A DNA stretch of 64,000 nt from Candidatus Zhuqueibacterota bacterium (GCA_016928775.1 JAFGKD010000071.1:84164-148163), one strand, 5' to 3'. Shown: positions 1,687 to 59,392, counted from the stretch's first letter. The notes: generated by a model from the sequence alone, not told the origin. Program-made: numbers and translations.

Positions 1687-4600
1687 CTATTTGAGCACGG
1701 TCATCCGCTTTGTTTTCATTTCGGAACCGACAGTTAATCGATAAAAATAAAGGCCGCTGGCGATCGCTGAAGCGTCATATTTCACACTATAATTACCTGG
1801 AAACATGGTTTTGTTGACCAAAGTCATTAGTTTTCGTCCTCTGATATCATAAATGCACAGGTTCACCTGCCCGGTTTGTGGTATCGTAAAGGAGAATGTT
1901 GTTATTGCATTAAATGGATTGGGATAATTCTGCGCGAGTGACAGAACCACAGGCATTGCTGATGGGCGAACAGCACTGTCAGAGGCTAACGTGTTGGAAA
2001 AACCTGGTGTACCATATCCCAAAGAGGCTGTCCAGTTTTGTGGCAGGCTGTTATCCAGATGCGGTGCGCGCAGCGAGAGGGTCGGACCATGGCCATCCGG
2101 TTGCGCCGGCCACGGTGCGCTATTGCCAAATGCAACTGAATCAATGTTATTTCCCACATCATCAAAAAGTCGAACAATATCTTGGGAGTTCAGGCCAAAA
2201 TCAAAATCACCCAGACAATTTTTTACAGCGGGGAACATGTCTTGAAATGCAGAGATATTTCTGCACAAAACAAGATAACCATCGGCAGGAATGATCGTGC
2301 TTTTGGGGATAATAAATTTATGTGTATCATCGCTGTCAAGAAAAAGCCAGTTTGAGACATCAATGGCACTGCTATGTGGATTATAGAGCTCGATCCAGTC
2401 GTCCACATCAAATTCGACCAGGGAATTGTAATTTATCTCATTAAAGAGAATCATATTTTGATTGTTGTTTGCTTTTTCAAAATGCGCCATCACATAAGAT
2501 ACATCAGGCACGACAACGTTTATCTGTTGAGAGGGAGAGTCACCGGAGGAGAGTCCCCTCCAGTGGGAAAATCGATAGCCCGCATTCGGGAGGGCAGTGA
2601 GTTGGACTGGAATGTCGAAAAAATAGTCGCCCGACCATGGGTAGACGTCAATAAGAATGGAGTTTAGTTTGATTTTTCCACTGCCCGGTGAAGAGATATC
2701 CAGTTCAAGATAATCCCATCCCTGGAGCGAAAAATAATCACAAATTTGTCGATATATAAAAGTCGATCGACGCGAAGAAAAAGTCCGTAAAACATCAATT
2801 TGTTGTTCCCACTCGTTTTTTGACCTTAGAGAAGAATATCGTCGCCATCTCTCGATATGGCGCTCGATTTCCGGTTCAAACAGTGAACTCATTTGATCAA
2901 TTTTCGCGTTCACTCGAGAGTGATCAAAATTTGTATTTAAATAATCGGCAAATCGATTGATAAAATCATTGCTGAATTGTGTGCTTTCCAACATTTTTCG
3001 CAGCAGAAAAGTTGTATGCGGCGGATTGGGCCAATCCATATTATCTGTTTGCGTGGCGTGCGCTAATGTATTGTGTTGAAAATCGTTATTGCCGTTGGAA
3101 TTAAAAGTATAATCCAGATCATACATAAACCATCGCCATAAACCATTCGCTGTTCTGGGGCGCCAACACTTGTTGTTGTTTCCCGGCCAGTCATAATTGG
3201 CACAATAAATTTGTGTGACGCAATAATCTATATAATTGTCGATATCAACAACCGATTTGATATAGTCATAATGAAAAGACTGATTGATATCATTATTTTC
3301 CAGATAGTTTTCCAAATCAAGATAAGCGTGATCATCACCTTCACTGACCACAGGATAGGATCGTCGCCAATATCGGCTGATGATATCAACATTTTCTTTG
3401 TCAAAGCCAAAATGCGAAGCAATGTAATCTTCATTAAGCTTTTCACGAATATTTTGGATGCCCCAGTATTCTCCATTCAAAAACAGAATCGCCGGCCGAA
3501 AAGCTTGTCGATCCACATTTTTATCTTGAACCAGGCTTGATGCCAGCGGATCACGAAAAAAAGTTTTTTGCCAGTCTGTGCCAGCCGCACGCAATACAAA
3601 CGATTTGAATGTTCTTATATCAAGATCGGGGAAAAGCTGATAGTGCAGTTCATCCAGTCCATATTTGTCACGAATCATAATCGACAACGATTTTTGCGCA
3701 TTGGCTCGACTTCCCCAGCCAAATATTTTTATACCGGCGTTGATGCTAAAAGCTGATGTTCCATTTGGCTCAAAAAATTCGACGTGCACCGGCCGTTCCC
3801 AATCCTGCCAGTAATTCGCAATGCGATTCCCTTCATCGGCGTTGATACCCGGACTATAGATACCAATCTCATCATCCCAAAGATTGTCCGGAGGAGTGGA
3901 AATGGAAAAAACCGGCATGGTAAAATGTTCATTGATGAGATATGTCTGCGTTTTAACTTTGCTGGATACAACACTGTTTTCAAATGTTGCCGCTTTGACA
4001 ACAGTTGTTTTGCTGATGTTAATCGGCTGTGTATAGAGAAATGAATCCGGCGACGGATTTTCGCCATCCAGAGTGTAATAAATTTTTGCCGTTGATGAAG
4101 CGGCCGAAAGAACGAGAGACAAAACATTCGAATAAAATCCGGCAGCATGGGAAAAGCTCACCGTATCGTTAAAGCCGGGAAAAGGTGTCGAGGTGTTACT
4201 TTGTGCCGGCGTTGGCTGCAAAAAAGTTACCCACTGTTCCGTACCATCTGGAAATCGGCCAAGCGAAAGATCGATCGGGATGTCGCCGGTTTCGATTTTG
4301 TCGCATAGCTGCCCGTTATTATCCGTCAATAGGATTGTCTCGCCGCTTCGATCGATTTTGAAATTGGTATGCATATGGATGGCCACTTCATGCGGCTCTT
4401 TTCGATCTTTGCCCGATGCAAAAACCAGCAAATATGCTTTCGGTGCAATTGTTACATTCGGGAAAGTCCATTTATAAAGATCTGCAAGATCATCTGACAA
4501 ACCATAACCGGCTAAATTTATCGAATTTGAACCCGCATTATAAAGTTCAATCCAATCAGGATAATCACCATCGTGTGTTGATTCTCCCATCTGTTCATAC

Positions 4601-4755
4601 CACCATTGGCAATCCGGCACCGGACAATTTTGTTGATCAACATCGTATTCGTCTTCAATGCTTGAGATATTGGATGACATAATCTCATTCAACAAAATCT
4701 GCGAGAATACCGGGTACGTGAATAATAAAAGCAGTAGGAGATAATAATTCTTCAT
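1687..4755 (-). CDS. Large secreted protein with lamin-tail-like (LTD) domains, a CotH-like central domain and a T9SS C-terminal sorting domain
   Basis: 1022 aa ORF. The N-terminal signal is followed by ILLNEIMSSN and later VLFNEINYNS LTD-type motifs. The central ~300 aa resembles the CotH family. The last ~80 aa (LAQNYPNPFNAITTFSFTIP...GLYFYRLTVGSEMKTKRMTVLK) match the Por/T9SS C-terminal domain pattern. Confidence 0.6.
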   Translation of the reverse strand: MKNYYLLLLLLFTYPVFSQILLNEIMSSNISSIEDEYDVDQQNCPVPDCQWWYEQMGESTHDGDYPDWIELYNAGSNSINLAGYGLSDDLADLYKWTFPNVTIAPKAYLLVFASGKDRKEPHEVAIHMHTNFKIDRSGETILLTDNNGQLCDKIETGDIPIDLSLGRFPDGTEQWVTFLQPTPAQSNTSTPFPGFNDTVSFSHAAGFYSNVLSLVLSAASSTAKIYYTLDGENPSPDSFLYTQPINISKTTVVKAATFENSVVSSKVKTQTYLINEHFTMPVFSISTPPDNLWDDEIGIYSPGINADEGNRIANYWQDWERPVHVEFFEPNGTSAFSINAGIKIFGWGSRANAQKSLSIMIRDKYGLDELHYQLFPDLDIRTFKSFVLRAAGTDWQKTFFRDPLASSLVQDKNVDRQAFRPAILFLNGEYWGIQNIREKLNEDYIASHFGFDKENVDIISRYWRRSYPVVSEGDDHAYLDLENYLENNDINQSFHYDYIKSVVDIDNYIDYCVTQIYCANYDWPGNNNKCWRPRTANGLWRWFMYDLDYTFNSNGNNDFQHNTLAHATQTDNMDWPNPPHTTFLLRKMLESTQFSNDFINRFADYLNTNFDHSRVNAKIDQMSSLFEPEIERHIERWRRYSSLRSKNEWEQQIDVLRTFSSRRSTFIYRQICDYFSLQGWDYLELDISSPGSGKIKLNSILIDVYPWSGDYFFDIPVQLTALPNAGYRFSHWRGLSSGDSPSQQINVVVPDVSYVMAHFEKANNNQNMILFNEINYNSLVEFDVDDWIELYNPHSSAIDVSNWLFLDSDDTHKFIIPKSTIIPADGYLVLCRNISAFQDMFPAVKNCLGDFDFGLNSQDIVRLFDDVGNNIDSVAFGNSAPWPAQPDGHGPTLSLRAPHLDNSLPQNWTASLGYGTPGFSNTLASDSAVRPSAMPVVLSLAQNYPNPFNAITTFSFTIPQTGQVNLCIYDIRGRKLMTLVNKTMFPGNYSVKYDASAIASGLYFYRLTVGSEMKTKRMTVLK

Positions 4756-4955: not shown

Positions 4956-6398
4956 TCAGTATCCAACGGCAAAAACACTCTTCTCGCCTCGCACAAGCAT
5001 CACTTCCTCAGAAATCACCGGTGTCGTCATGATGCGCTCACCCATGTCATTTGTCGCTACCAATTCGTATTGTGGTCCGGCCTTGATAACAAAGACATCA
5101 CCATCTTCACTCGGCAGGAAGAGTTTCCCATCCGAAGCCACCGGTGATCCGCTGAATCCTCCACCGCGGTGCGGGATTTTTTCGCTGTAAATCTTCTGCC
5201 CGGTTTCCAGATCATAGCAGCGAAAATCACCATTATTGTTGAGGGTATAGACATACCCGCGATAGATGATCGGTGTTGGCATATACGGCCCGACTTTGGT
5301 TGCGCTCCATAAAATATCCTTGCTATTTGTTTGGCCTTCTGGCAAGGTAATATCACCCCTAACGCCGGTTTTTATGGCAAAGACCGGCGCTTCCGGTCCT
5401 CGACCACTGCAAACAATGATGATGCTGTCGGAAAAGACCGGCGTTGGTGCGGTGATCTGCGAGCTGCCTCCCAGTCGCCACAGCTCTTGCCCCGTATCTG
5501 GATAGTAACCATAAATAAAGTTGGATGAATTGGTCACAAGTTCGACTCGATCCGGCCCGTGAATGATCGTCGGTGTTCCCCAGCCGGGCAATTCATCGCG
5601 CTCGGTCTTCCAGACAAGATCACCGGAATGAATATCAAGGGCGAGGACATAGTCATCATCCGAGGTATCGGTCTGGATGAACACTTTGTTCCGGTAAATG
5701 ATCGGGGAGCTGGCGGGACCCCATTCCAGATGCGGCGCATTATAGGCACCGACATTCATGCGACCTATATTTTTTTTCCAGACAAATTCGCCATCCACAG
5801 TATAAACAAACACACCCTCGGAGCCGAAGAGCATAACCACATAACGTCCGTCTGTTGCCGGGGTGGAATTGTTATAAGTGGATTTGATATGCCGTTTATC
5901 TTGTGGCACCCCCTGGTGCACAAGCCGTTCCCATATAACATCGCCGGACTTTTTATCGAGACAGTAGAGCATCCACTGATGCGACGAGGTATCCTCCGAG
6001 GCATCACCGGCGCCGTATAAACCATGCTTGAATGTTGCATCTCCCAGACTGCTGATGGCTGACGTGACAAAGACCTTGTCTTCCCAGACAATCGGGCACG
6101 CATGCGCCAGACCCGGGATATTTGTTTGCCATTTTATATGCTCGCCGGTCACACCACTAAAGTTCAACGGCAAATTTTGTTCATCAGCCACACCGGCAGC
6201 GTAAGCGCCGCGAAATTGCGGCCAGTTGCCATCATGTTTGATGATACGAAATGGTTTAGCCTCCGGACTTTTAGCGACAGCCTCTGTTTTTTCCTGCCGT
6301 GGTGATTCCTCTTGAGTGCACGCAGAGCTCATGAGTATAGCTAGGAGTGTAAATGTAAAATAAATTTTAATATTTGTGCGATTAGAAAACCAAACCAT
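4956..6398 (-). CDS. PQQ-like beta-propeller repeat lipoprotein (BamB/PQQ-repeat family)
   Basis: 480 aa. The lipoprotein-type signal ends in SSAC. Repeated xLDxxTGxxxWxx motifs (YCLDKKSGDVIWER, LALDIHSGDLVWKTE, RCYDLETGQKIYSEK) are typical of PQQ beta-propeller repeats. Confidence 0.65.
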   Translation of the reverse strand: MVWFSNRTNIKIYFTFTLLAILMSSACTQEESPRQEKTEAVAKSPEAKPFRIIKHDGNWPQFRGAYAAGVADEQNLPLNFSGVTGEHIKWQTNIPGLAHACPIVWEDKVFVTSAISSLGDATFKHGLYGAGDASEDTSSHQWMLYCLDKKSGDVIWERLVHQGVPQDKRHIKSTYNNSTPATDGRYVVMLFGSEGVFVYTVDGEFVWKKNIGRMNVGAYNAPHLEWGPASSPIIYRNKVFIQTDTSDDDYVLALDIHSGDLVWKTERDELPGWGTPTIIHGPDRVELVTNSSNFIYGYYPDTGQELWRLGGSSQITAPTPVFSDSIIIVCSGRGPEAPVFAIKTGVRGDITLPEGQTNSKDILWSATKVGPYMPTPIIYRGYVYTLNNNGDFRCYDLETGQKIYSEKIPHRGGGFSGSPVASDGKLFLPSEDGDVFVIKAGPQYELVATNDMGERIMTTPVISEEVMLVRGEKSVFAVGY

Positions 6399-11655: not shown

Positions 11656-12729
11656 ATGCAAAACAACAGCCTTGATGATCTCTTGTATAAAATAGCTGAT
11701 GCACGGCGAAAGCCGGATTTCTCGAACCTTTTAGCCATTCTTCAGCGCCGGGTGCCGTTGCGGCCGACGTGTTTCGAATTTACCATCAATAATACAATTT
11801 ACCGGCATGTCACCGGCAAATCCGTCCCGCAAGATGGTGACGGACTCGGCTGGTCGCGCTACCTTGTCGAGGCGTTCGCAAAGCTTGGCTATGATTTTGC
11901 TGTTGTCGGCGGCTGGCACTTGAACGCGTTAGTGTTTCCATTGGGAGAAAAGCATACGGTCAAGAGCAAATCGCTCAATGACGGTGTCATGATCACTGAT
12001 CGCGCCAGCTTTGAAAAATATGCCTGGCCGGATTTGGATGTTTCGCGGCTGCAACCGCTGGCTTTGATGGCGAATGAGCTTCCTGATGGCATGAAAATTA
12101 TCTGCTGCGGATATGAAGGCATTTTAGAGACAACCATCGATCTCGTTGGTTTTGAAAACCTCTGTTTGTTGCTGTATATGGATCCTGAATTGACCGCGGA
12201 AATTTTCCGGCAGGTTGGCTCACGAATCCTGTCCTATTACCGGCATGTGGTGCAGTTCGACAGTGTCGGTGCGATCATCGCCAATGATGATTGGGGTTTC
12301 AAAACCCAAACCATGTTGGCACCGGATGATCTCCGTCGACTCGTTTTTCCGTGGTATCAAAAAATCGTTGACTTTGTGCACGCCAGCGGCAAACCGGTTA
12401 TCCTGCACTCGTGCGGCAATCCTGAGGGGATCATTGAGGATATAATCGAAAAGATGAGATTTGACGGCAAGCATTCTTACGAAGATACCATTGTGCCAGT
12501 GGAGCAAGCGATAGAGCGTTGGAGCGATCGCATCGCGATTATTGGCGGCATCGACGTAGATTTCCTGAGCACCCGTTCGGTCGATCAAATCCGCGAGCGC
12601 ACTCAAAGTATTCGCGATATCGCCATGCGTAAAGGTGGTATCGCCATTGGCTCGGGCAATTCCATTCCGGATTATATCCCGATTGACTCTTATTGCGCCA
12701 TGCAGGAAACAGCATTGGGCCTGGATTAA
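11656..12729 (+). CDS. Uroporphyrinogen decarboxylase (URO-D)-like family protein, MtaA/MtbA-type putative methylcorrinoid methyltransferase
   Basis: 357 aa. PVILHSCGNPEGIIEDII contains the HxCG zinc-ligand motif of MtaA-type methyltransferases. C-terminal GGIAIGSGNSIP. It lacks the HemE N-terminal PxWxMRQAGR block. Confidence 0.6.
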   Translation: MQNNSLDDLLYKIADARRKPDFSNLLAILQRRVPLRPTCFEFTINNTIYRHVTGKSVPQDGDGLGWSRYLVEAFAKLGYDFAVVGGWHLNALVFPLGEKHTVKSKSLNDGVMITDRASFEKYAWPDLDVSRLQPLALMANELPDGMKIICCGYEGILETTIDLVGFENLCLLLYMDPELTAEIFRQVGSRILSYYRHVVQFDSVGAIIANDDWGFKTQTMLAPDDLRRLVFPWYQKIVDFVHASGKPVILHSCGNPEGIIEDIIEKMRFDGKHSYEDTIVPVEQAIERWSDRIAIIGGIDVDFLSTRSVDQIRERTQSIRDIAMRKGGIAIGSGNSIPDYIPIDSYCAMQETALGLD

Positions 12730-13587: not shown

Positions 13588-15126
13588 TCAGGCAACTTTG
13601 GAAACATTGTTCCAGTTGATACCGATTTTCGGACAAGCATACGCCATTTCTTGGGTATAATCGCCCACGGCCATCATCCAGTGAAAGCCGCGATGATCCT
13701 GCAGTAATTTTTCCCAGTCACCGTCGATGCTGACATCATACTGCGAACGGCAGATGTCGTAAAACGGATTCGCCTCAATTCGGCCCGTGAAACCAACCCA
13801 GGCTTTTTGTCCGGCATCCGGACAGACCATGGTGAAGGGTGTCTCGATAGGCAGCTCAACTTTGGGCGTAGCGCCGTAATCCGATTCAAAGTGAGTGACC
13901 ACCCGCGCGGCAGCGTATTTTTGCCCATCCATACGGCGCGGCGCGGTGCAGTGCGCGACCGTGACCATGCCGTGATGTGGAAACGTCGGGTCGTTGAGGA
14001 ACACCGGTTTGCCTGAAATATAGTGCAGCAGAATACCCGACGGGATGACATTAAAATCCGATTCGCAAAATGCGAGATAACCTTCATCGTTCAACAGACT
14101 GAGTGGCAGGCAGGCGGTCGTTTCGGAGATCGGCATGACCGTGCCCATACAGGCTTGAATTGTAAATGCAGCGGCATTATTTTCAGCGAGATATTCTTTA
14201 AAGATATCATAGAGCAGAAAGGCGTTGCTGACAAACTGCTGATCTGTATGGAGCAAAGTGTCCGGCAAATTGAGATAGTGTTGCGCCCAGTGTTGCGCGC
14301 GTTTGAGTCGGTCGCTATCGGCACGCGCGAATTTGATACGCTGGGCCAGGTCTTCATAATCCACATTGATGATGTCGAGTCCAAATTTTGTCCTGGCGAT
14401 CTCCGGCGCACCCGGATGACACCATCCCGATGAGCCGCCTAATGCGACGATCTTGCTGCCGATAAAATTGTGGACGCCATACAGACCGCGCAGCTTGCTC
14501 AACATCTCGTCATAATCATCGACGACAACGTCATGGATCGTCATACCTGAAGGATAGCGATACTCGTCCAAATCTTCGGTCTCATTGCCCTGACGCAAAA
14601 AGCGATTGTGGACAATTTCGTACCAGAGATAAATAGGGCCGGAGCGGTGGCGCAAAAAGATGAGATTGTTCCGTTTTTCCGAGAAACAAGCCTCCAGGGC
14701 AGTTGTCCAGCCGGATGCCGCGTAGACGATCGGCACATCATAATCCGCTGTTTCGCGAACTTTTTGTGCTTCTTCGACGGATCGCACTTTGACCAGCGGA
14801 CGTATCTCTAACTCGAATTCGGCTTTTCTTTGCATGGCGGCTAACTCGGAAGAAATTCGATTCACCTCTTCGGCAATATCGGCTTCCGTGTGTAAACCAC
14901 CCCAGGGACGCCATGAGGTTTGTTCCTGACGTTTGGAAATGCTATAGAGCAAAACAGGCTGGATTCTCAGCGGTTTGCCGGTGCGAATCATCGGTTTTTC
15001 AGGATTCCAATCGGTGGTCGATGCTTTTGTCGTTCCCAACGCCAAAGCTGCACCGGCTACACCCATAGCCGAGACGCCAAGGAATTCGCGTCGATTAAGT
15101 CCGGATAATGAACATGAACAGCACAT
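13588..15126 (-). CDS. Tat-exported hypothetical protein (possible sugar-isomerase-like fold)
   Basis: NRREFLGVSAMGVAGAALALG twin-arginine signal. 512 aa, function not recognised. Immediately adjacent to GH29. Confidence 0.5.
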   Translation of the reverse strand: MCCSCSLSGLNRREFLGVSAMGVAGAALALGTTKASTTDWNPEKPMIRTGKPLRIQPVLLYSISKRQEQTSWRPWGGLHTEADIAEEVNRISSELAAMQRKAEFELEIRPLVKVRSVEEAQKVRETADYDVPIVYAASGWTTALEACFSEKRNNLIFLRHRSGPIYLWYEIVHNRFLRQGNETEDLDEYRYPSGMTIHDVVVDDYDEMLSKLRGLYGVHNFIGSKIVALGGSSGWCHPGAPEIARTKFGLDIINVDYEDLAQRIKFARADSDRLKRAQHWAQHYLNLPDTLLHTDQQFVSNAFLLYDIFKEYLAENNAAAFTIQACMGTVMPISETTACLPLSLLNDEGYLAFCESDFNVIPSGILLHYISGKPVFLNDPTFPHHGMVTVAHCTAPRRMDGQKYAAARVVTHFESDYGATPKVELPIETPFTMVCPDAGQKAWVGFTGRIEANPFYDICRSQYDVSIDGDWEKLLQDHRGFHWMMAVGDYTQEMAYACPKIGINWNNVSKVA

Positions 15127-15138
15127 AAAAACCTCCTT

Positions 15139-16620
15139 TTATTTATATTCCCACAGTAATCGCTCATCATAGACAATTTTAAAAGAGTAGGCATGCTCGC
15201 ACGGTTTTTTGGTTGGGCATGCGATTTTGAGACCATCTGTGGTCAAGACCCAGTTGAGCTCCTCCGCTACACCAAGCATGGAAACGGATGTGATTTTTGT
15301 CTTGTCCAAAATGGACAACGATTTGATGACGATCTGGTCGCCCGGCCAATCCAGGGCAATGGCATACAGCGTATTCGGCCTGGTGGTGAAACGAATATCC
15401 TCGGCCGTGTAAAGCAGTGGTTTGTTGTCGATGAAACTCCCACCTTTGAACTGTGTCGGCCCTTCGCCGTATTTGAACCAGTGACGCGTCCCGTAAATTG
15501 CTTCTCCATTGACCTTGAGCCACTCGCCAATGCCCACTAAACGTTCTTTTTGTTCATCAGGAATGGAGCCATCCGCTTTTGGCGCAATATTCATCAAGGT
15601 GTTGCCATTTTTGCTGACGCGATCGATGAGATTATCGACCATTTCGTTCACGGGTTTGTAATCGATGTCTTCTACATAACACCAGGACTTCCGACTGATG
15701 GAGGTGTCGGTGATCCAGGTGTCGTGATGCAGTGAATCAAGTTGTCCACGTTCAAGGTCCAGCAGACCGGCGCCGACGGGCAGGTGGTCGTGCTTGTAGG
15801 ACACCACAACATTTGCACCCCATTCTTCACTCTTGTTGTAATAACAGGCGAGAAACTGGCGCTTGTACGGTTCGAACGGCGGTTCTTTCCAGCCAAAGTC
15901 GAACCAGATGTAATCGGGCTGATAGTTATCAACAACCTCAAGTATTTTGCCAAGCCAATTCTCGAGATAGGCTTGCGGCTCGGGTTCATCGGCGGGATGC
16001 GGTGTGCCATAGAGCTGGGCATAGCGCGCGTCTTTGGCGTCGTATTGATAGGCGAACTCAAAATGCTTCCACTTGCGCGCGTGATGGAAGCTGACCATAA
16101 ACTTGAGATTCCGTTTGCGTGCCGCTTCCGCCAACTCGCCGGTGATGTCGCGCCGCGGCCCCATATCCCAGGCATCGTATTCCGTCAATTTGGAATTCCA
16201 CATGGAAAAGCCGTCGTGATGCTCGGCTACCGGGCCAATAAATTTGGCGCCTGCCTGAACAAAGAGATCGATCCATTCATCGGCATCAAATTTTTCCGCT
16301 TTGAACATGGGAATAAAATCTTTATAGCCAAACTGATCCTGCGGCCCCCACACTGTGCGATGATGTTCAAACGTGGGATCATTTGTATCGTACATGCGAC
16401 GCGGATACCACTCGTTGCCCCAGGCCGGCACTGAATAGACGCCCCAATGAAAATAGATACCAAATTTGGCGTCTTTGAACCACTCGGGAGTGGGATGCTG
16501 GATGAGAGATTCCCAGGTTGGTTCATAAAGTTGGCTTTGTGGTTTCACCTGTCCTTGAGCGACGTGACTGGACCACAAAAGGATGAAAAAAAGCAGGAAA
16601 AGAAATGGCGATTTGATCAT
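15139..16620 (-). CDS. Alpha-L-fucosidase, GH29
   Basis: Signal peptide, then FGIYFHWGVYSVPAWGNEWYPRRMY and HHDGFSMWNS blocks characteristic of GH29. C-terminal beta-sandwich domain. Confidence 0.9.
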   Translation of the reverse strand: MIKSPFLFLLFFILLWSSHVAQGQVKPQSQLYEPTWESLIQHPTPEWFKDAKFGIYFHWGVYSVPAWGNEWYPRRMYDTNDPTFEHHRTVWGPQDQFGYKDFIPMFKAEKFDADEWIDLFVQAGAKFIGPVAEHHDGFSMWNSKLTEYDAWDMGPRRDITGELAEAARKRNLKFMVSFHHARKWKHFEFAYQYDAKDARYAQLYGTPHPADEPEPQAYLENWLGKILEVVDNYQPDYIWFDFGWKEPPFEPYKRQFLACYYNKSEEWGANVVVSYKHDHLPVGAGLLDLERGQLDSLHHDTWITDTSISRKSWCYVEDIDYKPVNEMVDNLIDRVSKNGNTLMNIAPKADGSIPDEQKERLVGIGEWLKVNGEAIYGTRHWFKYGEGPTQFKGGSFIDNKPLLYTAEDIRFTTRPNTLYAIALDWPGDQIVIKSLSILDKTKITSVSMLGVAEELNWVLTTDGLKIACPTKKPCEHAYSFKIVYDERLLWEYK

Positions 16621-16635
16621 AAGAAACCTCCAAAT

Positions 16636-19347
16636 TTATTGTCCAAATGAAAGCTGACTTTTGTAAACAGTCACTCGATGAATCTCCTCATCATCAATAC
16701 TGAAAATGCGATAGGTCACTGTTGGATCATCTGCGGTCGTATCAAAATCGAGTTGGCCAAAAGAGCATTTTTTATTATAGCCAAATATGGCGCCCGGCAT
16801 AATCGCGTGCGTGTGCATATTGGATAGTTTCGAGCTTTCAAATTCGTAAAAATCATAGCTATGTGGCCGCCGGATTTTCCAGGCGTCCGAACGATGTCGA
16901 TCGGCCGAAAGGAGAATAACGCCGTTTATGTTAGTTTTTTCGATGAAAGTAAATATCTCCTCGCGCTCTTCCGGATGCCCATCCCAGGTATCCAGGCTGC
17001 CCGGTTTTGTGCCGTGCGCCCAGGGTACGGATGAGGCGACAACCTTGAATGTTGCGGTTGATGCTTTCAGCTTGTCGAGCAGCCACTGTTTTTGTACAGC
17101 GCCGAGCATCGACGCGCCCGGATGACCCTGTGGCTGTTCACGATAGTAGCGGCAATCTAACATGAAAAAATCGACATCCCCGTAAGAAAAATCAAACCAG
17201 CAGCCCGGCTGGCTCTCACCGCCGCCGTAGAATGGATTGTTCCACTGAAACGTGAACAGCCGCCAGACATCCCTTTTCCAGGCGGGCTGTTCAACACCTG
17301 GACTGCCCTTGCCGTCGTTGAAGGTGAAATCGTGATCATCCCAAATAGCATACATTGCTGTATGGCTGGTCAATCGACGGAACTCGGGGCGACTTTGCCG
17401 GCGATAGTAGCAAAACTGCTGCACAGCCGGTCGCTCGGGATGATCGATATAGACGTTGTCGCCTAAAAGCAAAAAGAAGGGCAGGTGATGCGAGCCGATG
17501 GTGTCCCACATATACTCATGCTTTGGCGTTGCCCCGGCGCCGCCGCCAAAACCGGTGCTGAAAACAACGGATTGCCCTTTTGCAGGAAAGGTGGTAAAGT
17601 GATAAATCTTGTCCTGAACAATATCGTCGATCACCAATCGATAGTCATAGGTTGTGAGCGGCTTCAGGTCGTCGAGCAGCACAATAGCGGTGTTTTCATT
17701 TTTAGCCGTGGTTCGCTTGATGCTCGAACGAATTTTAAAGTCAAGCTCGTTTGTTTTTTTCGCCTGGATTTGAACGCTGGCTTCCTGCCGAGTTCGGAGC
17801 CAGAATTTGGCGGAATGATTCATCACATCACCGAGCAATGGACCGTGCACCAGCGCGGCATTTTGTTTCTCGACATAACGTTTGAACTTTTCACACTGTA
17901 AAAGCGGTGTGAGCAGGTCGGTTAAACCGCAGGTAAAACGGCAAAGGGGCACACCGGTTTCAATGGCTTTGGTCATGTATTCAAAGGCTTGCTCCGGATT
18001 TTTTTTTGCAGCGTAAACCGCCGCATAGCCATAATAGCCCTCCGGATCATTCGGGAAGGTCTGCATGAACAGATCGAGGAAGTTGAGCGCATGGTCAAAA
18101 TATCCCAGCTCTGCAAAAAAGACCACTTCACGAATGTAGCGTTTGTACTGGTGCTCCGGTCCGAGCGGCTCAAAAGCCAGTTTCTCCTCGTGCTCCGGCA
18201 ACACATCCTGTACCGCACCGAATTGTGTTAACAAGGCATCAACATCGGCTTTGTCGTACGGGATCGTCCGATAGAGCGGCATGCGCTCACCCTGGAGCGT
18301 CCGGTCGCTGTTCCAATATTCCCAAACGATCTCACCCTTTGCCGTGACCTCGATCAGGTGTCCGCGATCCGATTCCGCAATCAGCGTGTTGCCGTTTTTT
18401 AGTCGATTATTAGAGCCGCGTGACGGCGAATAAAATGATGTTTTAGGATCACCGGCATAGGTCCACACAATGGCGCCGGTCAGCGGCTCGATCTCCAAAA
18501 TTCGCGTGTAACCGCGTGATGCATTCGATGTATGTCGACCATTATCGTACACGAGAATGTTACCGTTCGCCAGCATGGTGGGATGGTGCGGCCCCTGCAG
18601 TTCGTGAGGCCCCCACGCCCAGACGATGTCACCGGACTGCCTATCAACGACAAAGATGGTATTTGCATGCCGGCCGCACATCAGCACATTGCCGGGTCGG
18701 AATCGTGCATCTTTGTCCGCTATCGGATTGTTCGGCAGCACTTCGCACGTGTTGATGTGCGGCCAATCACGAAATTCAGCAGCCGGCGGCAGCGGCTGCT
18801 CGACGAATTTTTCGAGATCTTGCAGGTGATCTCTGAACTGCCAGGTCCAGATCTGCTCACCCGTCTCGCTGAATTCAACCACTTCATCCATGGCAAGCTG
18901 TTGTCCCGGATGCCACGGATTGTCGACATCCCGCCGCGAAACCACCAGAGTATGGCCGTTTTCCGTGCGAGCCACATCGTGATGGGCGCGTAATGTGGCT
19001 TTCCACACCAGGTTGCTGAACCAATCCAGCTCAAAAATCATCTCATCTTTGATGATGACCAGCAGATTGCCATTCGGCAACATTTCGGCATAATGCCAGG
19101 TCATACCAAAGCCGCTGAAATCGCTCGTCGCTTCCTCAGTCGGGGCATAATACCAGGAGTGTACGACTCGCCCATCCGGGCGCAAGAGGTGAGCAGCAGT
19201 CAAAAAACGACTGCTGATGAGGCGATAACAATCATCAACTTTAGCCTGATTGTGAATGATAATACCTTGCGGTTCTTCTGCTCGCAAGATAACGCTTGCA
19301 GCGAACAGGCAAAATAAAAGGACAAGAACTTTTTTCATGACACTCAT
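16636..19347 (-). CDS. Secreted tripartite fusion: arylsulfotransferase(ASST)-like beta-propeller, TPR linker, PhoD-like metallophosphatase
   Basis: 903 aa. The N-terminal ~400 aa has ASST/propeller-like repeats (NGNLLV, NGNILVYDNG, NGNTLIAESDRGHLIEVTAKGEIVWEY). The middle has TPR-like helices. The C-terminus has PhoD/calcineurin-like motifs LLLGDNVYIDH, IWDDHDFTFNDG and GVILLSADRH. Confidence 0.6.
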   Translation of the reverse strand: MSVMKKVLVLLFCLFAASVILRAEEPQGIIIHNQAKVDDCYRLISSRFLTAAHLLRPDGRVVHSWYYAPTEEATSDFSGFGMTWHYAEMLPNGNLLVIIKDEMIFELDWFSNLVWKATLRAHHDVARTENGHTLVVSRRDVDNPWHPGQQLAMDEVVEFSETGEQIWTWQFRDHLQDLEKFVEQPLPPAAEFRDWPHINTCEVLPNNPIADKDARFRPGNVLMCGRHANTIFVVDRQSGDIVWAWGPHELQGPHHPTMLANGNILVYDNGRHTSNASRGYTRILEIEPLTGAIVWTYAGDPKTSFYSPSRGSNNRLKNGNTLIAESDRGHLIEVTAKGEIVWEYWNSDRTLQGERMPLYRTIPYDKADVDALLTQFGAVQDVLPEHEEKLAFEPLGPEHQYKRYIREVVFFAELGYFDHALNFLDLFMQTFPNDPEGYYGYAAVYAAKKNPEQAFEYMTKAIETGVPLCRFTCGLTDLLTPLLQCEKFKRYVEKQNAALVHGPLLGDVMNHSAKFWLRTRQEASVQIQAKKTNELDFKIRSSIKRTTAKNENTAIVLLDDLKPLTTYDYRLVIDDIVQDKIYHFTTFPAKGQSVVFSTGFGGGAGATPKHEYMWDTIGSHHLPFFLLLGDNVYIDHPERPAVQQFCYYRRQSRPEFRRLTSHTAMYAIWDDHDFTFNDGKGSPGVEQPAWKRDVWRLFTFQWNNPFYGGGESQPGCWFDFSYGDVDFFMLDCRYYREQPQGHPGASMLGAVQKQWLLDKLKASTATFKVVASSVPWAHGTKPGSLDTWDGHPEEREEIFTFIEKTNINGVILLSADRHRSDAWKIRRPHSYDFYEFESSKLSNMHTHAIMPGAIFGYNKKCSFGQLDFDTTADDPTVTYRIFSIDDEEIHRVTVYKSQLSFGQ

Positions 19348-19371: not shown

Positions 19372-20883
19372 TTACCGGTCGCCCAATGCCGGCATGTGAA
19401 ACCGCTCGATTGAGGAGGGTTCATGTTCCTGTCGCAGAATCTCCTCCATCTTTTGCAGGATTTCGGGATGTTCAGCAGCCACGTTGGTTTGCTCCTGTAT
19501 GTCCTCAGCAAGATTGAAGAGTTCGATTTCCGTGTTTCCGCTCAAAATATCGCGCCGGATGGCTTTCCAATCCCCCATCCGCACGGCTTGCTGGCCGCCA
19601 TAGGCGGGGAATTCCCAATAGAGGTAGTCATGCTGTTTCTGGCTTTTTCTCAAAAGTCTTGGCAGGAAGCTGATGCCGTCAATATCATCGGGCGCGTCCA
19701 CGCCGGTGAGATGACACAGGGTTGGCAAAACATCGTAAAAAACGGATAGATGATCCGTCTGCGAACCGGCTTTGATTGTGCCCGGCCAGCTCGCGATCAT
19801 CGGCACGCGAATCCCGCCTTCGTAAACCGTTCCTTTGATGCGTCCCTGTTGTGAGATAAAAGGTTTGGCGCTGTCGAACCACTCGGCATCCGAGCCGCCG
19901 CCAATACCGGCGCCGTTGTCCGAGGTGAAGATGATCAACGTGTTCTCATACAGGTCAAGTTCTTTGAGCTTTTTTATCAGCAAGCCGACCTGTTCATCGA
20001 GATATGATACCATGGCAGCAAAAGTGGCGTGCGGATAACGACTGGGGCAGTAACCCTGTTGCCCCAGATAGGGCTCCTCGTCGCCAAACTTGGCCACATA
20101 ATAGTCCACCCATGCCTGCGGCGCCTGCAGGGGCACATGCGGTATGGGCGTGGCCCAATAGAGGAAAAAAGGTTCGTCTCGATTATTCTCGACAAAGTTG
20201 AGAATTTCATCAAACATCACATCCGGGGAATAGTCCGGCTGGCTAAAGTGCGCGTAGCTTTGGGGATCGTCTGGATTGGCGCCTTCGGGAAGCGGCGTGC
20301 CGGGAACATAAAGCTCGTTGTTGAGCCACACTTTTTCTTCGTTTTTCCATAAATGTTTGGGATAATAGGTATGCGCCTGTCTCTGACAATTATAGCCAAA
20401 GAAAAAATCAAAGCCTTGTTTGGTGGGTATTGCATGCGTCAACGGGCCTCCGAGTCCCCATTTGCCAACAAGAGCGGTTTTGTAACCGGCATCCTGCAAC
20501 AGTCTGGCGACGGTGACGGTGTTCTCCGGGATCGGATATTGGCCTTCGAGGTTCGGATCGTCAACCGCTTTTTGATAGTTCCACACCTCGCCTCGTTCAC
20601 CCCATTCGTGATTACCGCGGATGAAGGCATGCCCGGTATGTTTACCGGTCATCAGCACACAACGGGAGGGAGCGCACACCGGCGAGCCGGCATAGTGCTG
20701 GGTGAAGCGCATGCCCTGGCGCGCTAAATCGTCGATATTCGGCGTCTCGATCTTTTCCTGGCCGTAGCAGCCGAGGTCGCCGTAACCGAGATCATCCGCT
20801 AAAATAAAAATGATGTTTGGCGGCTGGACGAGCTGTGTGCAGCCCGCCAAAAAGAGCAGCAACAATAAACAAAACCGATTCAT
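19372..20883 (-). CDS. Formylglycine-dependent sulfatase (S1 family)
   Basis: Lipoprotein-type signal (LAGC). PVCAPSRCVLMTGKH sulfatase signature. DDLGYGDLGCYG N-terminal block. Confidence 0.9.
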   Translation of the reverse strand: MNRFCLLLLLFLAGCTQLVQPPNIIFILADDLGYGDLGCYGQEKIETPNIDDLARQGMRFTQHYAGSPVCAPSRCVLMTGKHTGHAFIRGNHEWGERGEVWNYQKAVDDPNLEGQYPIPENTVTVARLLQDAGYKTALVGKWGLGGPLTHAIPTKQGFDFFFGYNCQRQAHTYYPKHLWKNEEKVWLNNELYVPGTPLPEGANPDDPQSYAHFSQPDYSPDVMFDEILNFVENNRDEPFFLYWATPIPHVPLQAPQAWVDYYVAKFGDEEPYLGQQGYCPSRYPHATFAAMVSYLDEQVGLLIKKLKELDLYENTLIIFTSDNGAGIGGGSDAEWFDSAKPFISQQGRIKGTVYEGGIRVPMIASWPGTIKAGSQTDHLSVFYDVLPTLCHLTGVDAPDDIDGISFLPRLLRKSQKQHDYLYWEFPAYGGQQAVRMGDWKAIRRDILSGNTEIELFNLAEDIQEQTNVAAEHPEILQKMEEILRQEHEPSSIERFHMPALGDR

Positions 20884-22211: not shown

Positions 22212-23543
22212 TCATGCTTTTTTGATCTCGTCGCTGTTTTTTTGAATTTTGGCAATAGCATCAACAATATCATCCATATCTTCCTTTTTACCAAGCAGCA
22301 CTGTTTGAGGAAAAGCGACGGTTGTTTCGCAGACGAGCTTGTTGCCTTTCAAATCGTTCAAGCTGTCGCGGTATGCTTTGAGGCGCTGGTCGGAAAAAAG
22401 GCGTTTGTAGCCGCGAGAATTGATCGCTTCATCAATTAATCCGTCAAAGTATTGCTCGTGGTAGCCTCTGCCACACGGGATGCCTTCGGAATTCAACGCT
22501 TGAATAAATTTATCTATTGGCAATCCGCTGAAGGATTCGGAATGATACCGAACGGGAAAGAGATGCCAGACTGCTGTGGCGTTTTCCGGCACTTTTGCCG
22601 GCTGGATGCCGGCGACGTTCCTGAGTTGTGCGGACAGATAGTCGGCATTTTGTTGCCGTGTGGCGGTCTCTTTTTTCAGCTTGTCAATTTGCTGAATCAA
22701 CATCGTTGCTTGTATTTGCTGCATGCGCCGGTTGCTGCCGCGGGTGAAATATTGTCTTTCACCGCTTGAACTGCCATAGGCCCGGCCGCAATTGTGAAAG
22801 GAATGGCAACGATCCATGATGCTATCGTCATTGCCGGTGATTGCACCGCCTTCGCCGGTCGGCAGGTGTTTTGAATTTTGAAAGCTAAAGCAGCCAAGAT
22901 CGCCGAGATTACCACATTTCGCGCCCTGATATTCGGCTAACCATGCCTGGCACGCATCTTCAATGACGGCCAGATTGTGCGTTTTGGCGATTGTATTGAT
23001 CGGCTGCATGTCGCACGGCAAACCATAGATATGCACCGGCATGATCGCTTTGGTTCGATCAGTAATACGAGATTCTATGTCCTGCGGATTGATTGTCCAC
23101 GTTTCGGGATCTGTATCAGCAAAAACCGGCAAGGCTTTGCTCAACAAGATTGAATTGTAGCTGGCGATAAAGGTGAACGGCGAGACAATCACCTCGTCAC
23201 CGGCATCGACCCCGAGGACGTGCATGCAGACTAACAGGGCCGTCGTACCGCTGGCAGTTGCGAGACAGCGTTTGGTACCGATGAGCTCGGCGTAGGCTTT
23301 TTCAAATTCCTCCACATGGTCGCCGCGGCCACGCCACCAGCGGCCGCTGCGCAGAATCTCCAGAATTTTGGGCTCCCACTCGCGTCGCCATTCCGGCCAT
23401 TTTGGCCATGACTGCGTACGTACTGGCGTCCCGCCCAATAAGACTGGCTTTTCCCGGGCAGAGACGACCGTCGGGCCAGCAGCCAGCGCCGCTGATCCCA
23501 CCGCGGCAGTTTGCATAAAATGTCGTCGTGATACTCTGTGCAT
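22212..23543 (-). CDS. DegT/DnrJ/EryC1/StrS-family PLP-dependent aminotransferase with twin-arginine signal peptide
   Basis: SRRHFMQTAAVGSAALAAGPTVVSA Tat motif. The body matches DegT family blocks (ATASGTTALLV..., AIMPVHIYGLPCDM, AVIEDACQAW). Confidence 0.75.
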   Translation of the reverse strand: MHRVSRRHFMQTAAVGSAALAAGPTVVSAREKPVLLGGTPVRTQSWPKWPEWRREWEPKILEILRSGRWWRGRGDHVEEFEKAYAELIGTKRCLATASGTTALLVCMHVLGVDAGDEVIVSPFTFIASYNSILLSKALPVFADTDPETWTINPQDIESRITDRTKAIMPVHIYGLPCDMQPINTIAKTHNLAVIEDACQAWLAEYQGAKCGNLGDLGCFSFQNSKHLPTGEGGAITGNDDSIMDRCHSFHNCGRAYGSSSGERQYFTRGSNRRMQQIQATMLIQQIDKLKKETATRQQNADYLSAQLRNVAGIQPAKVPENATAVWHLFPVRYHSESFSGLPIDKFIQALNSEGIPCGRGYHEQYFDGLIDEAINSRGYKRLFSDQRLKAYRDSLNDLKGNKLVCETTVAFPQTVLLGKKEDMDDIVDAIAKIQKNSDEIKKA

Positions 23544-23708: not shown

Positions 23709-24797
23709 TTAACGTATTACCTGCACAATGCACCAGCTTTCCTCGCCCAACTGGACGCCAGTTATCAGATGCGTCGGCTCGCCGTCAAATTTACGTTCCG
23801 GCGGATTATCCAAATTGAGCAGTTCCGGTCGTTCGCGGCGATCGAACGTTGTACTTGTGCCATCCGTCCATGTGATGGTGTGTCTATAAACTTTGATATC
23901 CTTATGCCGGCGCCAGCACAAGCCGTCGCTGGAAACGAGATGCGCGCCGTGACGCACATCGCCGGTCAATCCGCCAACATTGTCTTCAACAACCAGATTG
24001 TATCTGTTATGGTGATAGAACAACGTTCCATCTTCCAGTTTCACATCAGGAACGAGATTCGCTGCAACAATCTGGTAGCGACCGTCAAAGTGAGCCGCTT
24101 CAGCCATAAACATGGTCAGGTCACGATCGCGAAAGTTCAAGAGCACGCGACCATCATGAAACACATAGGGTGCGGGATTATTGGCATCGTCGGTTAATAA
24201 AATATGCTGATCGATACGATGCCACGGACCCGCTATCGACTCGGCCCAGGCAAAGCCAATTTTACGCTCAGACTGCTGCGGCGACCGGCCAATATAATAG
24301 AGCACATATTTGTCGCCTATCTTGACAATTTTCGGATTATGGCACATCTGGCCGTCCCAAAAATTTTCGCCGCGTCCAGCCAAGACGACCTGAACAAATT
24401 GGTACGGACCCAATGGATCATCCGAAACAGCGCGTACAATTTCTGAATGATTTCGATAATTTCCAAGCATGCTCACGTTGCCCCGATCTTCTGCATCAAC
24501 GCCAAGGGACTCCCAGGTAGGCCACCGGGAGGCGAAAAGATGATATTGATTGTCGACTTTGATGAGCGATCCACCCCAGACAAAATAACCACGCATACGA
24601 AATCCGGCGTCACGCGGGACGGGCTGGAGACGATCTAAAATTGGCGCTGGTGTACGGGAACTGCATGCGAAAAAAGTGAGGCACAGAAGAGTCAATATGA
24701 TATGCTGAAAGAAAGCCCGAACCAAAAACGATGTCGCCCTGGCATGGCGTACTTTGTATGTGATCTCGATGTGCGGTCTCATTTTTTCTCCAGCCAA
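23709..24797 (-). CDS. Five-bladed beta-propeller glycoside hydrolase-like protein (GH43/GH117-like), secreted
   Basis: Hydrophobic signal. DNQYHLFASRWP and GDKYVLYYIG are beta-propeller GH43-superfamily style motifs. The family assignment is tentative. Confidence 0.45.
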   Translation of the reverse strand: MAGEKMRPHIEITYKVRHARATSFLVRAFFQHIILTLLCLTFFACSSRTPAPILDRLQPVPRDAGFRMRGYFVWGGSLIKVDNQYHLFASRWPTWESLGVDAEDRGNVSMLGNYRNHSEIVRAVSDDPLGPYQFVQVVLAGRGENFWDGQMCHNPKIVKIGDKYVLYYIGRSPQQSERKIGFAWAESIAGPWHRIDQHILLTDDANNPAPYVFHDGRVLLNFRDRDLTMFMAEAAHFDGRYQIVAANLVPDVKLEDGTLFYHHNRYNLVVEDNVGGLTGDVRHGAHLVSSDGLCWRRHKDIKVYRHTITWTDGTSTTFDRRERPELLNLDNPPERKFDGEPTHLITGVQLGEESWCIVQVIR

Positions 24798-25522
24798 AAG
24801 TCAAAATTGGCCAGGCCCAGGTCTTCATGAATCGACTCGGGATTAGACAGGGTGAGGGTAAATGTCGCCAGTTCCCCGGCTGTGAGAGAAATTGGCGATA
24901 GCTTTTTCGTATATTTTATTTGCGGGGTGAACTCCCGGTTATCTCCATAAAAAATTGATGCGCTTGACCAGCGTGTCACATTGTGCCAGCGTTCTATGGT
25001 CTTTAGGTACCAGGTGACGATCGGATTTATGCCCGAGGTGCGTCCATGGGTGGCGCCGAGACTGCAACGACCAAAGCCGCCCAGCCTGTATAATCTGTCT
25101 AACTGAAGATTAGCCTGGTCGCTGGGCAGCACCCCCGGCTGTGTCGCGTCGAGGGTAAAAACTGTATCTTGATCGTTTATCTTGAGAAAAAGCGTCCTGT
25201 TGATTTCCTGGTCAATGTAGCGCATCACAGGTTGATAGACAACGTTTTCATCGGACTGCTGGTGCTCTTCTTTGGGAATATTGCCGTACGCCCGGATTTG
25301 TTCGCTGTAGCCTTTGGTGACGCGTTCGCCATTCCATTCACCACCCAGCATGGAATACAATCCCCAGTGGATAAACGTGGAAAATTTTTGATCGTGCCAA
25401 TGCTCGAATGCCTTTTCTTTAGAGTGCGGTTGCGAGTCACATGTACAGATCATGAGCGAAAAGGAGAGTGCAAAAATCGCAAGAAGATATTTCATAATTT
25501 TCCTGTCGTTTGATCCGCTCAA
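24779..25522 (-). CDS. Hypothetical secreted lipoprotein
   Basis: Signal plus Cys (LMICTCDS). FIHWGLYSMLGGEWNG is reminiscent of the GH29 N-terminal block, but the protein is only 247 aa. Confidence 0.4.
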   Translation of the reverse strand: MSGSNDRKIMKYLLAIFALSFSLMICTCDSQPHSKEKAFEHWHDQKFSTFIHWGLYSMLGGEWNGERVTKGYSEQIRAYGNIPKEEHQQSDENVVYQPVMRYIDQEINRTLFLKINDQDTVFTLDATQPGVLPSDQANLQLDRLYRLGGFGRCSLGATHGRTSGINPIVTWYLKTIERWHNVTRWSSASIFYGDNREFTPQIKYTKKLSPISLTAGELATFTLTLSNPESIHEDLGLANFDFWLEKK

Positions 25523-59383: not shown

Positions 59384-59392
59384 GCTGTTTCC

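Follow-up and report, generated by a model that had tools for sequence, protein, structure and literature searches.

The window analyzed here is a 64,000-nucleotide stretch from Candidatus Zhuqueibacterota bacterium (GCA_016928775.1 JAFGKD010000071.1:84164-148163). On its minus strand lies a gene for a 903-aa protein, packed between genes for a formylglycine-type S1 sulfatase and a glycoside hydrolase family 29 (GH29) α-L-fucosidase. An earlier note had described this protein as a secreted fusion of an arylsulfotransferase (ASST)-like β-propeller, a tetratricopeptide repeat (TPR) segment and a PhoD-like metallophosphatase. We found a single intact gene whose product joins a propeller carrying the conserved ASST catalytic residues to a PhoD-like module with a probably altered metal center. 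The gene, its parts and its partners are as follows:

16636..19347, minus strand: fusion gene, 903 aa plus stop; intact open reading frame (ORF) with an ATG start; GenBank RQW06883.1
19279..19347, minus strand: putative Sec-type signal peptide, residues 1-23 (KK, hydrophobic core, LRA/EE), read from the sequence
18250..19266, minus strand: ASST-type β-propeller, residues 28-366 (PF05935/PF14269; profile alignment to 3ELQ and Cpz4; Foldseek matches to 9KF6 and 3ELQ)
18160..18249, minus strand: conserved linker of two short helices, residues 367-396 (DSSP on the model; kept in intact and vestigial forms)
17860..18159, minus strand: TPR-like helical connector, residues 397-496 (roughly two TPR motifs and some short helices)
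17578..17859, minus strand: DUF7800/PhoD_N-type β-sandwich, residues 497-590 (Pfam PF25077, 1.3e-11; all-β in the model)
16639..17577, minus strand: PhoD-like/purple-acid-phosphatase-like metallohydrolase, residues 591-903 (PF09423; 2YEQ alignments)
19372..20883, minus strand: S1 (formylglycine-type) sulfatase, upstream partner (Pfam Sulfatase, 1.9e-60; 24-nt gap to the fusion gene)
15139..16620, minus strand: GH29 α-L-fucosidase, downstream partner (Pfam Alpha_L_fucos, 1.5e-106; 15-nt gap)
13588..15126, minus strand: 512-aa protein, last gene of the same-strand run (12-nt gap after the GH29 gene; weak TAT-like signal)
Propeller, candidate catalytic residues: H123 (RAHHD), H197 and N199 (WPHINT), R226 (CGRHANT), H254 (QGPHH), R310 (SPSRGS)
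Metallohydrolase, motifs: FGGGAG, residues 600-605 (G603); GDNVYIDH (D630, Y633); WDDHDFTFNDG (D670, D671, N677, D678)
Metallohydrolase, further motifs: SADRHRSD (D816, H818); NMHTH, residues 843-847

The 903 codons run without interruption from the ATG; Met4 is a possible alternative start, and NCBI holds both 903-aa and 900-aa versions of the protein. The GenBank entry, from a candidate division KSB1 bacterium, is annotated "hypothetical protein," and a second annotation reads "alkaline phosphatase D family protein." The identical 903-aa protein is encoded on an independent contig of the Logan assemblies, and 21 ortholog clusters share its length and architecture at 55-90% identity. The continuous ORF, the identical protein from a separate assembly and the full-length orthologs together rule out a frameshift or a two-gene artifact, and the three-part architecture stands as that of one gene. 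The same arrangement occurs in Calditrichaceae, KSB1 and Bacteroidota metagenome-assembled genomes (MAGs). Calling it novel is therefore only partly apt. Literature searches on arylsulfotransferase/PhoD/fucoidan and on DUF7800/PF09423, together with a Planctomycetota fucoidan paper and a preprint on GH29 polysaccharide utilization loci, yielded nothing on this architecture or on the PhoD-like subfamily, but the protein has been in GenBank all along and recurs in 21 clusters.

An AlphaFold2 model built from 22 orthologs (pLDDT 83.7, pTM 0.84) has an all-β N-terminal half, a helical connector, a β-sandwich and an α/β C-terminal domain. When the two halves are compared separately with their orthologs, they have diverged to a similar extent: 68.5% versus 67.7% identity in L001, 59.7% versus 54.5% in L003, and 53.1% versus 52.6% in L004. 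Such similar rates argue that both halves are under selection. Intact propellers diverge no faster than the C-half. At the N-terminus, the residues MSVMKKVLVLLFCLFAASVILRA/EE, read by eye, resemble a Sec signal, and the N-termini of the orthologs are comparably hydrophobic in the alignment. There is no twin-arginine motif. As far as this reading goes, the protein is likely to be secreted, as had been claimed.

Both Pfam arylsulfotransferase models match residues 88-346 well above threshold: Arylsulfotrans (PF05935) at 2.8e-20 and 73.1 bits against a cut-off of 24.2, and Arylsulfotran_2 (PF14269) at 1.1e-17 and 64.8 bits against 27. In Foldseek searches, the N-half of the model matches the Streptomyces sulfotransferase Cpz4 (9KF6, 3.3e-15; also 9KF4), Escherichia coli ASST (3ELQ, 2e-10) and 4P04 (approximately 1e-10), and the structural alignments with ASST structures cover the same propeller fold at 13-18% identity. 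The active site of the E. coli enzyme consists of His252, His356, Asn358, Arg374, Thr501 and the catalytic nucleophile His436 (review PMC13426309). We aligned the fusion to it through a profile of 35 ASST-like proteins. H252, H356, N358, R374 and H436 correspond to H123, H197, N199, R226 and H254 of the fusion, which retains five of the six listed residues; at the sixth position, Thr501 of E. coli ASST is replaced by an arginine, R310. All six positions, R310 included, are unchanged in the 22 fusion proteins, and H123, H197 and H254 are invariant in the 35 more distant ASST-like proteins as well.

A generic PQQ/WD40 propeller was considered and rejected, as the PQQ_2 model matches only marginally (28.2 bits, cut-off 27.6), whereas the ASST models match clearly and the catalytic residues are plainly recognizable. 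On these sequence criteria, the propeller is a genuine member of the ASST family, and the corresponding claim of the earlier note holds. It also differs from its known relatives. The E. coli enzyme carries an N-terminal β-sandwich domain, whereas the fusion lacks one and its propeller begins directly after the signal peptide. Like the enterobacterial ASSTs, it is predicted to be exported. It is joined to a metallohydrolase, and in contrast to E. coli ASST and Cpz4, it is encoded in a catabolic glycan operon instead of a dsb operon or an antibiotic cluster.

The closest stand-alone propellers, P0026 and P0027 (47-53% identical to that of the fusion), also occur in glycan settings. The P0026 gene lies directly downstream of SusC/SusD and is accompanied by an extracytoplasmic function (ECF) sigma/anti-sigma pair. 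In P0027 (53% identity; locus L085, 8001-11465), the propeller is itself fused to DUF5060 and a GH140-like hydrolase. No glycan context was found at the loci of two more distant stand-alone propellers, P0039 and P0040, which are uninformative. We note separately that a gene in the window (50019-52601, plus strand) combines Big_5, DUF5060, a GH140-like "apiosidase" and a collagen-binding-type protein, and that its DUF5060 and GH140-like module is the one found in P0027, which comes from a different metagenome.

Between the two halves, the connector looks TPR-like by structure and homology rather than by its own profile scores, and the TPR label is a soft one. Four antiparallel, paired helices occupy residues 401-462 of the model; a family profile matches consensus TPR proteins, and homologs carry precomputed TPR_16/TPR_19 matches. 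The Pfam TPR matches of the fusion itself, at residues 411-463, are all sub-threshold (best TPR_2, 16.8 bits against 27). The β-sandwich that follows matches DUF7800 at residues 497-575 (1.3e-11), with PhoD_N and Pur_ac_phosph_N below threshold.

The C-terminal domain had been called unambiguously PhoD-like. That wording goes too far, although in its broad outline the assignment is sound. The two motifs cited in its favor are present, GDNVYIDH at residues 629-636 and WDDHDFTFNDG at residues 669-679. Pfam PhoD (PF09423) matches residues 620-842 at 2.6e-30 and 106 bits, against a cut-off of 27. The top PDB match to the fold of the C-half model is Bacillus subtilis PhoD (2YEQ, E 1e-23), an Fe3+/2Ca2+ phosphodiesterase/alkaline phosphatase that shares both the N-terminal β-sandwich and the metallophosphatase core at approximately 19% identity; purple acid phosphatases (PAPs) match too. 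At the level of orthology the assignment fails. The NCBIfam equivalog model for PhoD, NF058638, scores 50 bits against a cut-off of 1000 and does not support orthology with PhoD proper.

The metal site departs from PhoD in one conspicuous respect. In an alignment of the family profile with 2YEQ, the PhoD iron ligand Cys180 (an Asp in a second PhoD subfamily) falls on the third glycine of the FGGGAG loop, G603. This loop is present in 130 of 139 close family members, over which the metallohydrolase motifs are near-invariant. We trust the alignment because two distant members, L045 (FGACAG) and L067 (FGGCAA), keep a cysteine in the same column. In B. subtilis PhoD, the C180A mutation abolishes activity, and the same study lists the ligands and describes an Fe site shared with the PAPs apart from the cysteine, with the tyrosine of GDxxY ligating Fe3+ in both (PMC4223295). 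From that description of a shared site, we infer that Tyr210 and His438 are ligands in PhoD. The remaining positions are largely retained: PhoD D207/Y210, D265/D266, N272 and D436/H438 have conserved equivalents in D630/Y633, D670/D671, N677 and D816/H818. D207, D265, D266, N271, N272 and D436 are the Ca2+ ligands of PhoD; of these, only the column of N271 varies within the family (F/T/Y), next to an invariant Asp678. Because Cys180 is replaced by glycine and most other ligands are kept, the PhoD-like metal center is probably functional but altered.

Comparison with the PAPs (kidney bean, 4DHL; sweet potato, 1XZW) gives a similar picture. The fold is common to both, including an N-terminal fibronectin-like sandwich, as is the GDxxY motif. 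PAPs bind their second metal through a His2-Asp-Asn set, whereas the fusion has the Asp-rich WDDHD set of the PhoD type and lacks the first Asp ligand. The fusion differs from PhoD outside the active site as well: it carries the TPR-like module, which PhoD lacks, its signal appears to be of the Sec rather than the twin-arginine type, and the genes around it encode sulfatases and glycoside hydrolases and do not belong to the Pho regulon.

When protein sequences were searched with the C-half, over 3,500 clusters matched at E ≤ 1e-20; on sequence similarity, the module belongs to a very large, uncharacterized stand-alone family. In a taxon scan of one genome per species, intact fusions appeared only in Calditrichaceae, KSB1, and Bacteroidota and Cytophagia MAGs. 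In approximately 65 species, the match begins only at residue ~397, with 40-57% identity from there on. They include Pirellulales, Sedimentisphaerales, Phycisphaerae, Bacteroidia and the cultured genus Puteibacter. Stand-alone proteins annotated as "alkaline phosphatase D family," such as those of Reichenbachiella sp. (P0152) and Puteibacter caeruleilacunae (L067), consist of TPR, DUF7800 and PhoD. They have a signal peptide followed directly by "QYK," the start of the TPR module, and from there to the C-terminus, over some 500 residues, they are colinear with the fusion and share its motifs. None has a propeller, and no family member has been characterized.

An exhaustive search of 1.84 billion representatives at 50% identity found only one further intact full-length fusion (P0229). 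A Rosetta-stone check at 65 loci detected no ASST-type propeller match within 10 kb of stand-alone PhoD-like genes. The fusion is unusual, as had been claimed, in the sense of being a rare derivative of a very large family, and relatives can dispense with its propeller. In a neighbor-joining tree of the C-module, made without bootstrap, all N-extended forms fall into one clade, a small branch nested within the stand-alone family. The clade holds the intact fusions together with two kinds of eroded relatives. L028 has a full-length propeller in which the catalytic residues are replaced, with Thr, Glu and Lys at the positions of R226, H227 and H254. Several Bacteroidota forms (L007, L008, L010, L016, L064, L044, L046, L047 and L049) keep a vestigial propeller of 120-225 aa, made of the first strands and the last blade. 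Each of these degenerate or vestigial propellers precedes an intact PhoD-like module, and the conserved linker is kept in intact and vestigial forms alike. The simplest reading of these sequences is a single fusion event followed by repeated propeller decay in Bacteroidota.

The C-module has also been joined to other partners. In other metagenomic proteins, DUF7800 plus PhoD is fused to an S1 sulfatase (P0254), a SASA carbohydrate esterase (P0242), a GH88 enzyme (P0355) and a LamG domain of lectin/glucanase fold (P0236). Two more proteins, P0243 and P0354, have 600-700 N-terminal residues with no Pfam match ahead of the module. The genomic surroundings of stand-alone members are mixed. Across 49 loci, S1 sulfatases are the commonest immediate neighbors (11 of 92 flanking genes), followed by ClpX (7, a conserved housekeeping synteny) and heparinase II/III-like lyases (3), with BNR, GH127 and SusD-like proteins also present. 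The Reichenbachiella gene is embedded in a cluster with five sulfatase genes and a GH92 gene, and on Sedimentisphaerales-like contigs, it lies beside oxidoreductase genes.

For the fusion itself, we examined four ortholog loci, with KSB1 and Calditrichaceae genomes among them and two loci without a taxon. At three of them, L076 (the Logan twin of the window), L077 and L078/L079, the S1 sulfatase, fusion and GH29 genes again follow one another in this order. In the fourth, L080 from Calditrichaceae, sulfatases lie on both sides of the fusion and GH29 is two genes upstream. A sulfatase therefore adjoins the fusion in every case (L076-L080), and several of the loci hold additional sulfatases. In the window, the run from sulfatase through fusion and GH29 to the 512-aa protein has intergenic gaps of 12-24 nt. 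The 512-aa protein has no Pfam, NCBIfam or PDB match; its spacing suggests that it is part of the functional unit, and it is a candidate new glycan-active enzyme. A 317-aa protein of the operon likewise gave no usable Pfam, NCBIfam or PDB match, with weak similarity to RimK/ATP-grasp proteins.

The rest of the window holds three more S1 sulfatases, a GH97, a GH140-like protein, a major facilitator superfamily transporter, zinc and iron alcohol dehydrogenases, sugar-acid dehydrogenases, an amidohydrolase and a tagaturonate-epimerase-like gene. Among the genes identified at the locus there is no endo-fucanase of GH107 or GH168. Sulfatases and a fucosidase surround the fusion and are co-oriented with it across genomes, and by this pattern the locus matches a sulfated-fucan (fucoidan-type) utilization locus, in agreement with the sulfated-glycan setting first proposed.

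Several other features of the window deserve mention. Two URO-D/MtaA-like methyltransferase genes occur on the plus strand. One belongs to a segment at 58238-62694; directly after it come the genes for an S1 sulfatase (59393-61195) and for a corrinoid reductive activator of the RACo type (61192-62694). The second (11656-12729) adjoins the fucan operon. A corrinoid methyl-transfer system beside a sulfatase might provide an anaerobic demethylation route for methylated sugars. A DegT/DnrJ-type pyridoxal-phosphate-dependent sugar aminotransferase (22212-23543, minus strand) has a sub-threshold TAT-like signal (E 0.00097, 19.4 bits against 22.7). It adjoins a GH43-like gene and sulfatases, and its position is conserved in L078 at 69% identity. 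An exported sugar aminotransferase would be unusual in a catabolic glycan locus, and the export signal is weak. Nearby (23709-25522, minus strand), a 247-aa ORF (24779-25522) aligns with no more than the initial ~70 residues of the GH29 profile and overlaps the start of a 362-aa ORF (23709-24797) with a weak GH43 match; the 247-aa ORF may be a gene fragment or have a mis-called start. Finally, a 1022-aa protein with lamin-tail, CotH kinase and type IX secretion system (T9SS) sorting domains (1687-4755, minus strand) is encoded next to a PQQ/BamB-like propeller protein (4956-6398, minus strand) and to a sulfatase. Its T9SS tail is consistent with an organism of the FCB group, to which KSB1 belongs.

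With moderate confidence, we propose that the fusion is exported and has an accessory part in the sulfated-fucan catabolism of this KSB1 bacterium, where it would take anionic ester decorations off fucose-rich sulfated glycans or transfer them. We favor an accessory de-decorating role because both modules accompany glycan-degrading machinery elsewhere and the fusion gene is central to a sulfated-fucan operon. Action on glycan decorations had been suggested before, and the other fusions and neighbors of the PhoD-like module agree with it. Conservation of the ASST catalytic set argues for sulfuryl chemistry in the propeller: H254 would bind the sulfuryl group covalently as a sulfo-histidine intermediate, with H123, H197, N199, R226 and R310 holding the anion. 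Cpz4, the closest relative with a solved structure, shows that sugar hydroxyls are within reach of this family (PMC13426309). The PhoD-like metal center would hydrolyze an anionic ester borne by the same glycan or oligosaccharide, and the TPR-like connector would fix the arrangement of the two domains. A phosphate mono- or diester is the conservative candidate for this ester and a sulfate ester the novel one. There is precedent for sulfate-releasing chemistry on a metallophosphoesterase fold in the thiosulfohydrolase SoxB. Working with the flanking S1 sulfatase and GH29 fucosidase, the fusion could strip substituents that block exo-acting enzymes. S1 sulfatases are a comparison by function only: they occur in the same loci, share the predicted export and presumably the substrate class, and one is fused to a PhoD-like relative, but their fold and chemistry are unrelated to those of the fusion.

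A number of observations weigh against this proposal. Desulfating a sugar to form a sulfo-histidine would be energetically uphill, and the known donors of ASSTs are aryl sulfates. Loss of one Fe ligand, together with the unconserved N271 position, leaves the metal content and activity of the C-half uncertain. The propeller has been truncated or catalytically stripped in several lineages of the fusion clade and is thus not essential to the job of the C-module. Many stand-alone members are surrounded by housekeeping genes (ClpX, pyruvate:ferredoxin oxidoreductase) and lack glycan genes in their vicinity, and the count of 11 sulfatases among 92 flanking genes is a raw one. We also found no biochemistry in the literature on either module of this subfamily.

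The most serious competing explanation is phosphorus scavenging, in which the C-half is a PhoD-type alkaline phosphatase/phosphodiesterase acting on dissolved organic phosphorus to release phosphate. The propeller would be carried along as a passenger, and the location among sulfatases would be incidental in a sulfatase-rich genome. The Pfam and structural matches to PhoD, the "alkaline phosphatase D family protein" label used by databases, the conservation of most metal ligands and the many stand-alone members in non-glycan contexts all speak for this explanation. It accounts poorly for the failure to approach the PhoD equivalog cut-off and for an invariant glycine in place of the Cys/Asp ligand whose loss in C180A kills PhoD. 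Nor does it explain why a sulfatase adjoins the fusion at four of four loci and GH29 at three of four, or why the module is fused elsewhere to a sulfatase, a GH88, a SASA esterase and LamG. Neither the window nor the orthologous loci showed any pst or pho genes. B. subtilis PhoD is reportedly exported by the Tat pathway, whereas the fusion has no twin-arginine motif. Overall, we consider phosphorus scavenging unlikely, though it retains some weight.

Propeller decay raises a second alternative, in which only the C-half is catalytic and the propeller, as a scaffold or by binding glycan, brings the metallohydrolase to its polysaccharide. Many β-propellers are lectins, and the C-module remains intact both where the propeller is reduced to about one blade (L007, L008, L010, L016, L044 and others) and where R226, H227 and H254 are lost (L028). 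A domain needed for binding alone, however, would have no use for a His/His/Asn/Arg/His constellation. In the 22 intact fusions, moreover, the ASST active-site residues never vary, and the propeller has not evolved faster than the C-half. The three histidines are invariant even in the 35 more distant ASST-like proteins. We regard a purely non-catalytic propeller as improbable.

Two further possibilities concern what the propeller and the metal center might do with sulfate, and we give little credence to either. In the first, the propeller would act on small sulfated phenolics, such as the sulfated phlorotannins that occur with brown-algal fucoidan, detoxifying or desulfating them, and the metallohydrolase step would be unrelated or coupled. 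Fucoidan is accompanied by polyphenols in brown algae, and all characterized ASSTs are periplasmic enzymes that take aryl sulfate donors and mostly phenolic acceptors (PMC13426309). Against this, Cpz4 prefers a sugar hydroxyl as the group that it sulfates (PMC13426309), the closest propeller relatives are tied to SusC/SusD and to a GH140-like fusion, and nothing in the locus points to aromatic metabolism. In the second, the fusion, or the whole FGGGAG-type family, would remove sulfate from polysaccharides independently of formylglycine. It could do so as a new class of PAP-fold, metal-dependent sulfatase or, in the fusion, through a relay in which His254 of the propeller accepts the sulfuryl group and the metal center beside it drives the irreversible hydrolysis of this group. 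If this unlikely idea were true, the fusions to sulfatase, GH88 and esterase and the company of sulfatases would mark an overlooked family of marine sulfated-glycan enzymes. The suggestion in the earlier note that PAPS-like metabolites may be the substrates finds no support, as the protein is predicted to be exported and nucleotide-sulfate genes are absent from the orthologous fusion loci, the only sulfate-activation genes seen (CysN/CysD/APS-kinase/sulfotransferase) being neighbors of P0027, a single distant case.

An accessory enzyme of sulfated-fucan breakdown remains the preferred reading. Few marine carbon pools are as resistant to breakdown as fucoidan-type sulfated glycans; the known routes of degradation take dozens of sulfatases and glycosidases, and many of the loci involved still hold genes without an assigned role. 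Both domain families of the fusion were already known, and the protein was deposited, without informative annotation. What the analysis adds is a conserved, unstudied member of a core sulfatase/fucosidase unit in KSB1, Calditrichaceae and Bacteroidota. It would also give the ASST family, whose physiological role is poorly understood, a concrete and testable setting in a catabolic glycan context.

The fusion is in addition an entry point to a branch of more than 3,500 clusters of "alkaline phosphatase D family" proteins with a modified metal site, sulfatase company and fusions to carbohydrate-active enzymes. This branch may be mis-assigned to phosphorus cycling. If the family does act on glycans, metagenomic surveys are wrongly adding its members to the phoD genes of the phosphorus cycle, and current models of degradation lack a class of enzymes for glycan decorations.

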